DNA from: an uncultured Armatimonadetes bacterium
Lineage (GTDB): Bacteria > Armatimonadota > Hebobacteria > Hebobacterales > Hebobacteraceae
NCBI GenBank assembly: GCA_963716175.1
Contig: OY970296.1
Span: 1,152,001 to 1,216,000, forward strand
DNA: 64,000 nt
Direction: 5' to 3'
Part shown: one piece after another, positions 1,556-63,542 of the stretch
Layout: every line of letters starts with the position of its first letter
Numbering within the stretch: position 1 is the first letter of the stretch
Translations under genes and position numbers: made by a program
Notes under the pieces: generated by a model
The model's database searches: none
Told to the model about the DNA's origin: nothing
Seen by the model: only the letters and a program-made list of their open reading frames with translations

Positions 1556-1638
1556 TGTGGGAGCCCGGTGGCTACGTCCGGGAGAGCGGACCGCCATGGC
1601 GGCCCGCCGGTGGCGGGCCTAGCCATCCTCCGGGCGAT
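1556..1638 (+). repeat. GTGG-tagged REP interrupted by a 57-bp bulged-hairpin dimer (1569-1625)
   Basis: TGTGGGAGCCCGG[insert]TCCTCCGGGCGAT; the uninterrupted sequence occurs at 37121-37146. Confidence 0.75.
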
Positions 1639-1688
1639 TACCTGAGGACACAGGAATCTCTGCTTCCCAACGCCGAATACACTACCCC

Positions 1689-1817
1689 GGCGGGCATGCA
1701 GAGATGGCTAGGTCGCCAACGGCAACCGCTGGCTAAGCCTGCCTTCGGCGGGCCGCCATCCCGGCCTTCAGGCCTAGGGACATGGCGGCCGGAGGCCTAG
1801 CCACATGCCCGCCCTAC
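1689..1817 (-). repeat. GTAG-tagged REP with doubly nested mini-elements
   Basis: GGCGGGCATG...CATGCCCGCCCTAC outer stem; near-identical to 63358-63435 apart from an extra 51-bp insert at 1730-1780. Confidence 0.8.
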
Positions 1818-1832
1818 AGCCGGAGTCGCCCT

Positions 1833-18733: not shown

Positions 18734-18812
18734 CGGGCAGGTCAGGTGGCTAGGCCTGCTCCGCAGGCCGCCACCCCGGCCGCCGCAAGCGGCCTAGGGG
18801 GACCTACCCTAC
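18734..18812 (-). repeat. GTAG-tagged REP carrying a 54-bp bulged-hairpin dimer (18747-18800)
   Basis: CGGGCAGGTC...GACCTACCCTAC outer stem abutting the lysA stop; compare the empty REP at 20141-20165. Confidence 0.7.
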
Positions 18813-37048: not shown

Positions 37049-37190
37049 GTAGGGCAGGAGCGTTGCCTCCTGCCCATGCTCAGGCGGGCACGGGAGTGCC
37101 CGCCCTACAGTCCGGGTTAGTGTGGGAGCCCGGTCCTCCGGGCGATCCATCCTCGGGCCGGGTAATCGCCCCGGGGACGGGGCTCCCACA
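37049..37190. repeat. Two REP doublets (REPIN-like): GTAG pair 37049-37108 and GTGG pair 37121-37190
   Basis: GTAGGGCAGGAG..CTCCTGCCC facing GGCGGGCAC..GTGCCCGCCCTAC; TGTGGGAGCCC..GGCGAT facing ATCGCC..GGGCTCCCACA. Confidence 0.8.
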
Positions 37191-41874: not shown

Positions 41875-41975
41875 GGCGGGCATAGGCGGCTAGGTCTTCG
41901 ACCGCCATGGCGGCCTGCGTAGCAGGCCTAGCCACATGCCCGCCCTACAGGGGGCGGGATGAATCCCGCCCCTAC
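41875..41975 (-). repeat. Tandem GTAG REPs; one carries a bulged-hairpin dimer, the other overlaps the A2M stop codon
   Basis: GGCGGGCAT..[CGGCTAG..CTAGCCA]CATGCCCGCCCTAC, then GGGGCGGGAT GA ATCCCGCCCCTAC. Confidence 0.8.
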
Positions 41976-44900
41976 AGCACCTCCAACTGGACGGGCTTGG
42001 CGGTGGCGCTGATCTCCGGGTTGTAGTAGCGATACACCTTCGAGGCCGGGGTGGCGGCCTTGATCGGGAACTTGGCGCGCAGGCGATAGCTGAAGGCGAG
42101 GGGCTTGCGCGAAGCGAGCCTGTCCAGGTAGATGATGATCTGGCGAGCGGCGACGGTGAACTTCTGGATGGTCTTCTGCTCCACCAGCTTCTGGAGGTCC
42201 TCCGCCATCACCTCGAACCCGGGCGGCAGGCCCAGGTCAATCACCACCATGTTGCAGGCGCGCGGGTCGTTGTTCACGACTTGCACCGAGGCGGTGATGA
42301 TGTCATTGGTCGCCAGCGTGGTGCGGTCGTAGCTGACATCAATGTCGAGCAGCTCGCTGGGCCGGGGGCTTCACCAGCTCCCAGGGCAGGTAATACCTGG
42401 CCACGATCTGGTAGAGGGCGCTGCCCTTGCCCTTGAGGTTGATGCGGACATCGTTGGCGCCGGGCCTGACCAGCTCCCGCGCGTCCACCTGGCGCACCAC
42501 CTCATAGTCGGCCTGGGTGAGGCGCCAAGAGGCGGCCTGCTTGCCGTTCACCTCCACCGTCACTTGCGCGTCCACCTCCTGGGCGGCCTGCTTGAGGGCC
42601 TGCAGCAGCGTCTTGAGCGCCCACACCGTGGCCTGGGTGGTCTGCCAGGTCCCGAAGCTGTCCTTGGAGCGGATCAGGTAGGTGAGCGCCTTGTTGGTTA
42701 GGTCCACCCGGCGGCCGGACTTGACCAGGGCGTAGGCCGCAAGCGCGGTGGTCTCGAGGTCGGCGGCGCCATTCTGGGCGGAGGTGACGGTGGGCGCCTG
42801 GGATTTCCAGTAGGCGGTCTTCTCCTCCACGGTGGCGACCTTGGCGAGCGCGTCGAGCACCTGGCCCGTGGTGGCGGAGTCCGGCTGGCCGCTGAAGTAG
42901 GCGTTGGCGATCACGGCCAGGGCGTAGGCATCCTTGGCGCCGGCCCAGTGGGTGTCGAGATAGGCGAAGGCGCGCTTCAGCGCGTCGCCCTGGTAGCCGG
43001 ATTCGGCCAGCGCCCAGGTAACGTAGGCGGTTACGCGCAGCACGTCGGTCTGGCGGTTGATGATACCCTCCGCGATCCCGCCCGGATCGCGCTCCCAGGA
43101 GCCGTCCTTCTGCTGCTGGGCGGCCAGCCACTGCTGAGTGCGGGTGATCACGTTCTCGTCCACCTGATGCACGCGGCTCATGTCGTGGAACTCGAGCAGC
43201 CCATAGGAGGTGAGCACCTTGTGCGCGGGGGCGTCGCCGAACCAGGAGAATCCGCCGCCTTTGACCTCGAAGGAGAGCAGGCGCTGGTAGCCCACGTTGA
43301 TGTACTGCTCGGCCTTCATCTGGATCTCGGGCCTGGCCTGCTTGGTGGACTTCAGGTAGTCGAGCACCAGCACGTTGGGATAGGTCACAGAGCTAGTCTG
43401 CTCGAAGCAGCCGAAGGGCATGCGCAGCAGGGAATCGAGGCCTTCGACGGCCTGGCTGAAGAGGCCGGGGTAGATCTTCACCAGGATGGTGGAGGCGTCG
43501 GGGATGGCCTCCTTCGGGATGGCCACCGTCCTCTCGACGGTTCCCTCGAGACGATCGTTCCAGGTGTCGCGGCGCTCCTCGCCATCGGGCAGCACCTCGA
43601 TCTGGCGCTTGATGGCATCGGAGAGCTTGCTGCCCTGGGCGTGGACGGTGAGGGAGTTCATCCCGATCTTCTGCGCCCGGATGCGATAGTAAACGACCTT
43701 GATATCAGAGGCCGCGAGGTCGAGCGACTTGTCCGCCTGGTCCTCCACCAGCTCGAACCAGGGCTGCATCTGCAGCGACAGCTTCACGGTCTGCGGCCCC
43801 GGCAGGTAGTTGTAGACCGCGATGGGGACGGAGATCTCGTCGTGCTCGGTAAGGGCGACGGGCAGGTCAATGTCAATGAAGAAGTCCTGGAAGACGCGCA
43901 GGCCGGCGGTGGCGCTGCCGAGCTGGCCCCGCTGCGAGGAGGCGAGCGCTTGCAGGCGCCAGGTGGTGATGGAGTCGGCCATCTCCACGGTGACCGCGGC
44001 CTTGCCCTGCTCGTCGGTGATCAGCGCGGGATTGACGTACATGGTCTCGGGGAAGAACTGGCGCAGGCGGACCTGGGGCTGGCCCGCGGCTGCGGGCTGG
44101 GCGGCTCCGGTCGGCGCCGGCAGCGCCTCGGCCTTCCTCATGGCCATCGCGTCCATGGCCAGTGCCCCCTCCTCGAAGACCATCTCGCCCCCGCCGCCAA
44201 AGCCGCCAGCTTTGAACCTTCTGCCTTCTTTCGCCCAGGCACCGAGGCCGAGGATGTCGTCGGTGGTGCCCCAGCGGCCATCGGGCCCGGCGGAGTCGAG
44301 GGTGCAGTTGGCGTTGCGCCAGCGCACCCGATAGGGATGGTTCCAGCGATCGCGCAGCTCGCGGCGGCGCAGCAGCCCCTCGTCCGCCAGCACTGAGAAT
44401 GTCTTCATTGGGGATGAGATAAGCGCGGTGGAGCTGGTAGTAGCGCTGCAGCGCGCGGTCGATCCGCTCCGCATCTCGCGCCACCCCTTTGATCCACTCC
44501 TCCATCGCCTGCTCCACCCGTTCGTCATAGGTGTTGACGGTGAGAGTGTAGGGATCGCGCGGCTGGGCGGCGGCGAAGAGCACCGCGGCGGCGCGCTGGC
44601 GGGCGGCGTCCTCTTCCGCGGGCTTGGGGGTTTCGAAGGGTAGGCGGCCAGAGATGATGCCCTCAGGGGTGAAGCCGTGGATCTCGTACCGGGGCTTGAG
44701 CAGCTCTTTCTCCAGCGCGAAGTAGATGCGCTCCAGGCCGGGCTGCATCTCCTGCAGCGCGAAGACGCTTTCGTCCACAATGGTGAGCCCCAAGGCGGCG
44801 AGGGTGGGCTTGCCCCTCTGATCGCGCACCGCGAAGGTCAGCTTGGCCTGCCCCCCGGGGCGATAGGTCTGCTTATCTGCGCGCACCTCGACCACCAGGT

Positions 44901-47808: not shown

Positions 47809-48297
47809 CTATCCCCAGGGCGGATCGAATCCGCCCCAGCGCGAGTCGCGCATCTCCCAGAATCTTGCGCTGGAAAACGCATAGTACGTGGCCACATCTA
47901 CCATGCCAGCGGCCCGCGGGTTGTGGTGGACGTAAGCCAAACACTCGTCGAAGTCGTCGGAGTTCCTCACCACATGGTCGTAGAAGCGCCGGGCCCAGAG
48001 TTGACCGTGTCTGCCCGCGGCCGCGTTGATCTGGCGAGCCGACAGGCTGTTGATCCTCTGGACGATACGCGGGAGGCGATGGTCATGAAGTAAGGTCAGC
48101 AGAAGGTGGTAGTGGTGAGGCATGACAACGAAGGCGTGGAGTGAGCAGGAGCGGCCGCGCTCGGCGCAGATAAGGCGAGATAGCATCTCGGCACACGAGC
48201 GCTCCAAGAACCAACTTCGGAAACCTGCGGTTCTGATGGAGGCGAAGTAGGTAGCGTTTGGGAGATCAAGCCGCGGCAGGCGGCGGTGGAGTTTCAT
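47809..48297 (-). mobile_element. REP-associated tyrosine transposase (RAYT, Y1 HUH family)
   Basis: RRLPR..TYF, AFVVMPHHYHLL (HUH), LWARRFYDHVVR, YVHHNP, YAFSSA; flanked by REPs. Confidence 0.9.
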
Positions 48298-48306
48298 GGC
48301 GGTACT

Positions 48307-48351
48307 CGGGCAGGAGCAAGTCGCCAGAGGCGACTCAAGCTCCTACTCAAC
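48307..48351 (-). repeat. GTTG-tagged REP upstream of RAYT with 19-bp insert
   Basis: GGGCAGGAGCA[AGTCGCCAGAGGCGACTCA]AGCTCCTACTCAAC; same composite at ~62160-62202. Confidence 0.7.
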
Positions 48352-63357: not shown

Positions 63358-63435
63358 GGCGGGCATGCAGAGATGGCTAGGTCGCCAACGGCGACCGCCA
63401 TGGCGGCCGGAGGCCTAGCCACATGCCCGCCCTAC
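63358..63435 (-). repeat. GTAG-tagged REP carrying a bulged-hairpin dimer
   Basis: GGCGGGCATGCAGAGA[TGGCTAG..CTAGCCA]CATGCCCGCCCTAC. Confidence 0.8.
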
Positions 63436-63542
63436 AGGGGGCGGGCGTTTCCAGGCGTAGGCAGACGATGGCAGGAACCACGGGATATGGAGGCCAATAG
63501 TTGCTCATCCCGGCCTGACGGGGAACGGATGGGAGAAGAGCG

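Follow-up and report, generated by a model that had tools for sequence, protein, structure and literature searches.

How short hairpin repeats, such as repetitive extragenic palindromes (REPs) or the dRS3/NTS repeats, multiply is a long-standing question on which there is little direct evidence. It is raised by a stretch of 64,000 nucleotides from an uncultured Armatimonadetes bacterium (assembly GCA_963716175.1, contig OY970296.1, positions 1,152,001 to 1,216,000; the whole of it is called the window below), in which double-hairpin elements of 45–60 bp lie inside REPs and inside one another. What are these elements, and which enzyme moves them? They are read here as non-coding miniature members of a mobile double-hairpin family that would be moved by a small GIY-YIG nuclease, the partner enzyme being predicted from sequence; this reading is given a probability of about 0.55. 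The preliminary description of the window had proposed a non-autonomous mobile element defined by its structure, a view supported by a natural empty allele, by paralogous empty sites and by an enrichment of the copies at stem-loop junctions.

Paired hairpins and their copies in the genome

The unit of the family is a bulged hairpin, 5'-TGGC-TA-[G/A]G[C/T]C-tip-G[G/A]CC-GCCA-3', joined without spacer to a mirror-image hairpin. The basal 4-bp stem of the right half is TGGC/GCCA, TCCC/GGGA or CCCC/GGGG, and the tips can be any pairing sequence. The five copies previously announced in the window are all present (Table 1); the fourth, placed at about 41888-41934, spans 41887-41934. The genome-wide copy count, which had been proposed as a check, was made on the host genome (4.56 Mb, 66% GC, a single contig; labelled G000) with explicit sequence patterns and scripts rather than a covariance model, and amounts to 187 half units at 104 loci under looser scan settings. 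A strict scan for any four nucleotides followed by TA, a hairpin and the complement of the four nucleotides returned 111 hairpin units with TGGC, 37 with TCCC and 35 with CCCC; none of these three 4-mers is among the top eight when TA is swapped for any of seven control dinucleotides. Likewise, the pattern TGGCTARGYCN{3,15}GRCCGCCA has 98 matches in the genome versus none for its reversed control. Directly adjacent mirror pairs number 72 (37 TGGC/TCCC, 20 TGGC/TGGC and 15 TGGC/CCCC, six of the rows being composites), and every one of them includes a TGGC half.

The hairpins are under selection for pairing. Because the first scan demanded complementarity, the covariation test was redone with only the left half as anchor; the right half then has complementary basal 4-mers in 64 of 71 cases, which fall into four pair types, TCCC/GGGA (27), TGGC/GCCA (23, palindromic pairs being counted on both strands), CCCC/GGGG (12) and CGGC/GCCG (2). 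The covariation of the outer stem noticed at first sight thus holds where it is not selected for. The same applies to the inner hairpins, said to differ in sequence and to remain paired: beyond the conserved GGYC/GRCC there are 107 distinct tips, and the 75 distinct long ones form perfect stems of 2.72 bp on average versus 0.45 bp once shuffled. Mismatches within the tips (22 A.C and 13 G.T) favour neither strand, which argues for a structure read at the DNA level on either strand and not for a one-strand RNA.

Table 1. Double-hairpin elements, their hosts and the Y1 gene of the window (positions counted from its first letter)
Feature	Position	Strand	Remarks
57-bp double-hairpin element, TGGC/TGGC class	1569..1625	unstranded	from sequence and the empty contig of run X3; tips GTCCG-GGAGAG-CGGAC and GCCCGCC-GGT-GGCGGGC
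Split target of the 57-bp element	left half 1556..1568; right half 1626-1638	+ (left half)	arm of a long TGTGGGAGCCC-type palindromic repeat; inserted at the loop's 5' edge, CCCGG^TCCT-CCGGG
Paralogous empty site for the 57-bp insertion	37121..37146	+	TGTGGGAGCCCGG and TCCTCCGGGCGAT uninterrupted
GTAG-headed REP hairpin hosting the outer element, 5' stem GGCGGGCATG and loop CAGAGA	1689..1704	+	
Same host REP, 3' stem and head CATGCCCGCC-CTACAG	1804-1819		
Outer element, 48-bp type, TGGC/TGGC	1705..1803 (99-bp composite)	unstranded	split at 1729/1781; intact twin at 63374-63421
Inner 51-bp element, TGGC/TCCC class	1730..1780	+	at CCGC^CA of the outer left half
54-bp element, TGGC/CCCC class	18747..18800	+	between AGGTC and GACCT, which form the stem of a GGCAGG-type REP
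48-bp element in a GTAG-headed REP	41887..41934	unstranded	left basal stem mutated (CGGC..GCCA), first base changed to C
48-bp element, un-nested twin of 1705-1803	63374..63421	unstranded	same REP context (REP and element, 63359-63435)
RAYT-like Y1 (HUH) gene	47809..48342	-	flanked by GGCAGGAGC-type REPs; nearest half unit at 5875 bp

Empty sites, nesting and choice of target

The elements are gained or lost precisely and without duplication of their target. Contigs of four metagenome runs, belonging to four studies, were aligned to positions 1300-2100 of the window, and parts devoid of contig cover were not counted as absence. In one run, X3, a contig of 167 nt consists of 1496-1568 directly joined to 1626-1719, with one mismatch. 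The 57-bp element is therefore exactly absent from a natural relative, and this junction is backed by reads, since a de Bruijn contig holds only words present in the reads. The polymorphism between filled and empty sites on which the first proposal depended is thus found in an independent metagenome. The same run displays a "skip" of the nested 51 bp (side of 23 nt); this skip and the other joints with replaced letters belong to a repeated family, cannot be assigned to this locus and were not counted as an empty allele.

The two pairs of filled and empty sites pointed out in the window (37121 versus 1556 and 63398 versus 1730) are exact. The sequence TGTGGGAGCCCGG followed by TCCTCCGGGCGAT, intact at 37121-37146, is interrupted by exactly 57 bp between 1568 and 1626. 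Similarly, ACCGC/CATGGCG, unbroken within 63374-63421, has exactly 51 bp wedged in at 1729/1781, the other flanks of both loci being near identical. The sequence and the un-nested twin bear out the three nesting levels described at 1705-1803, where a REP stem (1689-1698/1804-1813) encloses the outer element, which itself encloses the inner one. No duplicated base was found at the junctions of the window copies examined, in the empty allele or in the empty paralogues, in agreement with the lack of target duplication initially reported. About 1.2 kb before the start of the window (G000:C1:1150763-1150847), a second TGTGGGAGCCC-type repeat, 95% identical, already contains an element of the 57-bp type, which indicates that filled repeats are also duplicated as wholes.

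These junctions already refute one explanation for the present family, namely a TA-duplicating MITE (miniature inverted-repeat transposable element) of the IS630/Tc1-mariner type using CTAG as its target. CTAG does occur in every half, and a separate IS630-type MITE of this genome does enter those CTAGs. However, the whole TGGCTA...TAGCCA block is the insert, and both the empty allele and the paralogous empty sites show neither TA at the target nor any duplication, so that hardly any likelihood is left to this explanation. The separate MITE, with terminal repeats GAGCGCATTTCATAACC.., lies in the TA of an element CTAG at G000:C1:1763000-1763300, 1766000-1766300 and 4078100-4078290, where it adds further nesting levels.

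Insertion into other copies has occurred repeatedly. Seven copies of the 51-bp inner element have a mean identity of 97.4% versus only 68% and 79% for their 20-nt flanks, which indicates that a young element entered diverged older copies several times. The nested inner copies always lie at CCGC^CA of a TGGC half, in a single orientation relative to the site. Outside the window, two copies interrupt the frame of an IS3 transposase (ENARLK^QLVADY and SVLDD^YSRRLL) without duplication; no second IS3 copy spanning both insertion sites was found in the G000 genome. The same dead IS3 also carries single-hairpin inserts of 19-20 bp (CCCGCC-TCT-GGCGGG type; G000:C1:1961700-1961730 and 1961850-1961875) that shift the frame and constitute a smaller class of hairpin insert.

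The family is not restricted to this genome. It was found in 16 of 31 related genomes, G000 included, with 0 to 79 pattern matches each, these relatives being non-independent samples. Contigs of metagenome-assembled genomes carry the element at at least 84 loci, about four of which look like chance matches, under the labels Armatimonadota, Hebobacteria, Bacillota, Saccharibacteria, Paceibacteria and Omnitrophota. The orthologous intergenic region cannot be aligned across the 30 relatives, in which only the downstream gene matches (73-79% identity), and a comparison of filled and empty sites between species is therefore impossible. Two mini-elements from genomes with different phylum labels (L102 and L110) share AT-rich flanks (..AAAATG[AC]AAAATGA^..^CAATG[TC]AAAAT..), a likeness that suggests a common host repeat or target.

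The copies prefer stem-loop junctions and the CCGC^CA of their own left half. Empty sites were rebuilt for 60 copies with unique flanks and tested for a perfect stem at the junction. A stem of at least 4 bp with a loop of 2-9 nt was found for 38 of the 60 versus 22% of random positions, and a stem of at least 7 bp for 20 of the 60 versus 0.76% of 40000 random sites. Of these 38 junctions, 24 are located where stem and loop meet and 14 within the loop. The left flanks display no conserved sequence (..CAAG, ..ACGA, ..CCGG, ..CCGC, ..GAGA), and the contexts include at least nine different hairpin types and about ten sites without obvious hairpin. Each class has a host of its own: the CCCC class is found in GGCAGG-type REPs, one TGGC/TGGC subtype in GGCGGGCATG REPs and one TCCC subtype in GGCGGGG REPs. 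The targeting of hairpin DNA announced from the window alone thus stands as far as the enrichment at stem-loop junctions is concerned, but the commonest single target is CCGC^CA in another copy (16 of the 60, all TGGC/TCCC), and the two IS3 copies lie in no obvious hairpin.

Such regularities raise the question of whether the elements spread by homing only, the mini-elements being not transposons but protective or collateral inserts: after a nuclease cut, repair of the double-strand break would copy them into an empty repeat (REP, tRNA, IS3 or another element) from a homologous filled one, in the manner of free-standing homing endonuclease genes. Indeed, each class is confined to a single repeat family and a single junction (CCCC in GGCAGG REPs; the H/I type in GGCGGGCATG REPs), all the nested copies share one site flanked by conserved framework sequence, and the tRNA loci described below combine an intact tRNA, an open reading frame (ORF) and a dimer-split tRNA piece in tandem arrays. 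However, copies are also found in unrelated unique contexts, a REP stem offers only about 10 bp of homology, and the repeat family that hosts the 57-bp copy has few members. Homing alone is therefore judged unlikely; it is a variant of the joining step in the nuclease-based model rather than an exclusive alternative to it.

A GIY-YIG nuclease gene in the hairpin frame

In other genomes, the hairpin frame is physically fused to a small GIY-YIG gene. Two small AT-rich genomes of the Candidate Phyla Radiation (CPR) harbour elements of 292 and 298 bp (L103 and L104) with the usual half units at both ends. One hairpin tip of each holds an 89-aa ORF on the opposite strand, whose stop codon is provided by the CTAG of the other hairpin and whose product is a GIY-YIG domain (PF01541, E 1e-14 and 3e-12). 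A third full-length locus (L139, G043:C21), of 393 bp, begins with a complete CCCC half; the TCCC half that comes next contains, in its tip, both the ORF and a complete tRNA gene. Its insertion point in another tRNA copy lies after the bases of the D-loop, as though the element supplied a replacement tRNA of its own. The full-length relatives are about 295 bp long, encode a single-domain GIY-YIG protein of 85-90 aa and often lie at a tRNA T-loop.

Searches at a larger scale recovered the same arrangement. Among 57 homologous protein clusters, 44 share a C-terminal tail, AG[MVI][AP]A, that corresponds to the hairpin framework in translation. A metagenome scan yielded 53 loci, and the framework motif is found both before the start and at the stop in 37 of the 46 with enough flank; the 5' leader of the ORF is often complementary to its last codons. 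In 7 of 27 rebuilt cases, the end of the element is followed by TTC[GA]A[AT]T.., that is, a tRNA T-loop from its first base, and a complete tRNA lies just upstream in seven. The PF01541 matches range from E 2e-16 to 3e-12 for ORFs of 84-89 aa, residues Y5, Y16, R26, H30 and E62 being invariant in 27 sequences. By sequence, the nearest proteins of solved structure are two UPF0213 proteins (E 8e-9) and SLX1, a structure-specific nuclease. Small GIY-YIG genes are present in 86 of 151 CPR genomes (up to 13 copies in one 0.6-Mb genome), most of them adjoining tRNA genes, and the double-hairpin frame is limited to the subfamily with the motif REW.LKC.P.GGK. Locus L167 (G008:C199, about 1360-1500) shows a tRNA pseudo-copy with three small hairpin inserts, in the D-loop, in the anticodon region and at the T-stem/T-loop junction, upstream of a different small GIY-YIG gene; an intact tRNA then follows.

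The same association with tRNA genes is found in the lineage of the window. G000 has three small GIY-YIG ORFs, every one beside tRNA genes. The member of the subfamily (genome positions 3485042-3485293, outside the window) lies 34 bp away from a dimer inserted in a tRNA-Arg(CCG) copy at GCAGG^TTCGCAT; an intact copy of the tRNA comes next. In G010, an intact tRNA-Arg is followed by an ORF ending in ..LAAGG, with its stop in the CTAG of a dimer, then by this dimer and by the 3' part of a tRNA from the T-loop, the unit being repeated twice. G007, G008 and G011 display variants of this arrangement: in G007, the stop of the ORF is again the CTAG of the adjoining dimer, followed by the 3' part of a tRNA, and in G011, as in G000, the ORF has as its neighbour a tRNA-Arg copy into which a dimer is inserted at GCAGG^TTCGNAT. 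The recurrent site is the T-stem/T-loop junction of a tRNA with intact tRNA copies alongside, a donor-recipient pair not being seen. Elsewhere in G000 (G000:C1:1774680-1775490), an intact tRNA-His precedes five tandem units of 162 bp, each made of an 85-nt spacer, a T-stem mimic, a 54-bp dimer and the 3' part of a tRNA from the T-loop. Among the relatives, homologues at E <= 1e-14 were found in six of the eight genomes with at least 11 pattern matches and in none of the 22 with at most four.

These tRNA loci could suggest an element that acts in RNA, either as a structured motif or as an intron-like insert that would be tolerated in, or removed from, transcripts containing tRNA, rRNA or REPs. 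In small genomes, copies are indeed found in tRNA T-loops and inside an insertion of a 23S rRNA gene; moreover, the sections of PMC11270868 that deal with rRNA insertions of CPR bacteria describe GIY-YIG ORFs in non-intron insertions and place most insertions at the tops or bases of stem-loops. However, Rfam gave no match in the window at the gathering threshold and, at an E-value threshold, only sub-threshold noise for 1400-1900 and ten related loci. G.T mismatches are not in excess over A.C, and the split tRNA pieces are partial, with an intact tRNA alongside. ARAGORN identified seven complete tRNAs upstream and none across 27 rebuilt junctions, nor any tRNA at the element itself in seven small-genome loci. 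An action in RNA is accordingly very improbable. The more specific idea of an intron in an intact tRNA was dropped, the rebuilt empty sites having yielded only neighbouring complete tRNAs with ARAGORN. The rRNA copy mentioned above (L112, G034:C11, 1501-1551) lies in a stretch of 23S rRNA gene in which the insertions, judged by the Rfam model, total about 1.4 kb.

The other candidate enzyme is one of the REP-associated tyrosine transposases (RAYTs) of the genome, HUH enzymes of the Y1 type. The mini-elements would then be REPIN-like, their inverted hairpins representing a REP doublet cut and rejoined on single-stranded DNA (ssDNA). Five Y1_Tnp genes in G000, the occurrence of inverted hairpin doublets without target duplication inside RAYT-type REPs, and the presence of Y1 genes in four of the five small genomes that carry the element would fit this scheme. 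Position does not: for the five Y1 genes, the distance to the closest half unit is 5875-29064 bp and the flanking repeats belong to other REP families, whereas the GIY-YIG ORF of G000 is adjacent to a copy. Furthermore, the element lacks a GTAG or CGTC head, a genome with a full-length element (G031, possibly incomplete) has no Y1 match, and the same frame is fused to a GIY-YIG gene at dozens of loci. This origin is judged unlikely. Of the "HUH or other ssDNA enzyme" first proposed, the HUH/RAYT part has no positional support, but a GIY-YIG gene built into the same hairpin frame elsewhere fits the second part, and by sequence a small GIY-YIG nuclease is the more likely partner enzyme.

As for the REPs themselves, the repeats flanking the Y1 gene of the window are of the CGGCAGGAGC-TT-GCTCCTGCC type, and the same REP family hosts CCCC-class elements in its loops. 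GTAG-headed REP hairpins (GGCGGGCA..TGCCCGCC-CTACAG), single and paired, occur at 37085-37110, 41935-41990 and 63422-63445, and this family also flanks four RAYT-like genes elsewhere in the genome.

Several observations weigh against the proposal that a GIY-YIG nuclease moves the mini-elements. In G000, the ORF is beside a dimer and not within one. The frame surrounds only 2 of 49 sampled small GIY-YIG ORFs of CPR genomes, plus L139. Two relatives depart from the link between copy number and homologue, namely G018, which has 79 half-unit matches and only distant GIY-YIG matches (best E 2e-12, beside a tRNA, without the frame), and G009, which has 18 matches and no GIY-YIG match better than 7e-7 in a genome 74% complete; besides, the genomes compared are not independent of one another. 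The one Omnitrophota-labelled genome with a mini-element has no GIY-YIG profile match at 1e-5; this and the Y1 transposases of four of the five element-bearing small genomes mean that co-occurrence does not separate the candidate enzymes. The composites of REP and element probably multiplied as whole units, so that the counts of hairpin targets overstate the number of independent events, and the elements are not all oriented alike with respect to the host stem. Lastly, the published pattern of SRM, the repeat bound by the Ssn nucleases discussed below, matches none of the 72 dimers and is not enriched in the genome (60 matches versus 53-63 in shuffles).

Despite these points, a mechanism can be outlined for the nuclease-based model. 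A nuclease from the group of small GIY-YIG enzymes to which Ssn belongs would recognize the folded bulged hairpins on ssDNA and cut next to them, and the same enzyme would nick look-alike stem-loop junctions. The folded element would then be ligated in, or else repair would copy it over from a filled copy. Its own left hairpin would be the best substrate, and the elements would consequently land in one another. In G000, the mini-elements would be moved in trans by the single resident gene of the subfamily. An element at a stem-loop junction would form, by its two basal stems and the host stem, a three-way junction, and one at CCGC^CA a four-way junction; it may be speculated that either is a plausible substrate for an SLX1-like fold.

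A broader proposal is put forward more tentatively, its chances being somewhat short of even. The family would represent a new class of DNA transposon of about 295 bp, with a gene for a GIY-YIG ssDNA nuclease in the loop of one of two TA-bulged hairpins. This element and its gutted copies of 45-60 bp would insert precisely and without duplication where a stem meets its loop (tRNA T-arms, REPs, rRNA helices) and also at one fixed position of their own hairpin, and they would have crossed phyla (Armatimonadota, CPR, Omnitrophota-labelled). To our knowledge, no smaller autonomous DNA transposon has been described. If this proposal is true, nucleases of the Ssn type would be transposases at origin and not merely regulators of transformation.

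Comparison with known hairpin repeats and small nucleases

No description of the double-hairpin family was found in the literature searched. Among known systems, REPs and REPINs with their RAYTs are GC-rich hairpin doublets of tens to hundreds of copies, without target duplication and with a presumed single-strand mechanism. The present family resembles them by its doublets of inverted copies, of which G000 has 72 directly adjacent, but it has no GTAG/CGTC head, no RAYT gene flanked by the element and tips that vary freely; furthermore, it inserts into REPs, the GTAG-headed ones being separate host repeats. IS200/IS605 elements and their ORF-less PATE derivatives also generate no target duplication and have hairpin ends, which are read on ssDNA, lie in the same orientation on one strand and are inserted 3' of a fixed target of 4-5 nt. 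Unlike them, the present elements have no conserved flank and carry mirror-image hairpins at their very ends. They also differ from MITEs, defined by terminal inverted repeats and target-site duplication, since no such duplication exists in the empty allele or the empty paralogues.

Mitochondrial double-hairpin elements, the GC clusters of yeast mitochondria and the repetitive hairpin-forming elements of sponges are tiny GC-rich mobile sequences that invade intergenic DNA, variable regions of rRNA and each other. All of these are organellar and have another sequence, and we know of no dedicated nuclease gene tied to them. Among free-standing GIY-YIG homing endonuclease genes, those of the Seg family of phage T4 encode proteins with DNA-binding domains and have no hairpin frame; no miniature derivatives of them are known to us. 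What such free-standing genes and the ORFs of the CPR rRNA insertions have in common with the present family is the position of small GIY-YIG genes within tRNA and rRNA genes or next to them.

The closest published system is Ssn/SRM. According to the main-text parts of PMC11893778 (Chenal et al., Nat Commun 2025), Ssn proteins are single-domain GIY-YIG proteins of about 94 aa that bind NTS/SRM hairpin repeats on ssDNA and cut beside them, and that act neither on double-stranded DNA nor on RNA; a repeat lies near 71% of the ssn genes and on both sides of 42%, and the authors note that the repeat-gene-repeat layout resembles an insertion sequence. In the same main-text parts, no mention was found of precise presence/absence, insertion junctions, nesting, target structure or a link with tRNA. 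Within these limits, both systems have a single-domain GIY-YIG protein of about 90 aa and a gene flanked by hairpin repeats that are multicopy in the genome; here, such flanking on both sides is seen in L103, L104, L139 and the 37 of 46 metagenome loci. They differ in that the present repeat is a pair of TA-bulged hairpins and the gene is within one hairpin tip.

The family is rated as kin to repeats of the Ssn/SRM and REP kinds, and the evidence for its mobility and self-targeting is unusually direct. It combines exact junctions and a natural empty allele, a self-target the size of an oligonucleotide, a candidate enzyme of fewer than 90 residues, and full-length and gutted forms across phyla; this combination makes the multiplication of hairpin repeats testable with a few oligonucleotides and a single small protein. 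The family could link the recently described Ssn ssDNA nucleases with mobility, and it would explain hairpin-in-hairpin repeats, broken tRNA copies beside tiny nuclease genes and some of the short non-intron rRNA inserts of ultra-small bacteria.

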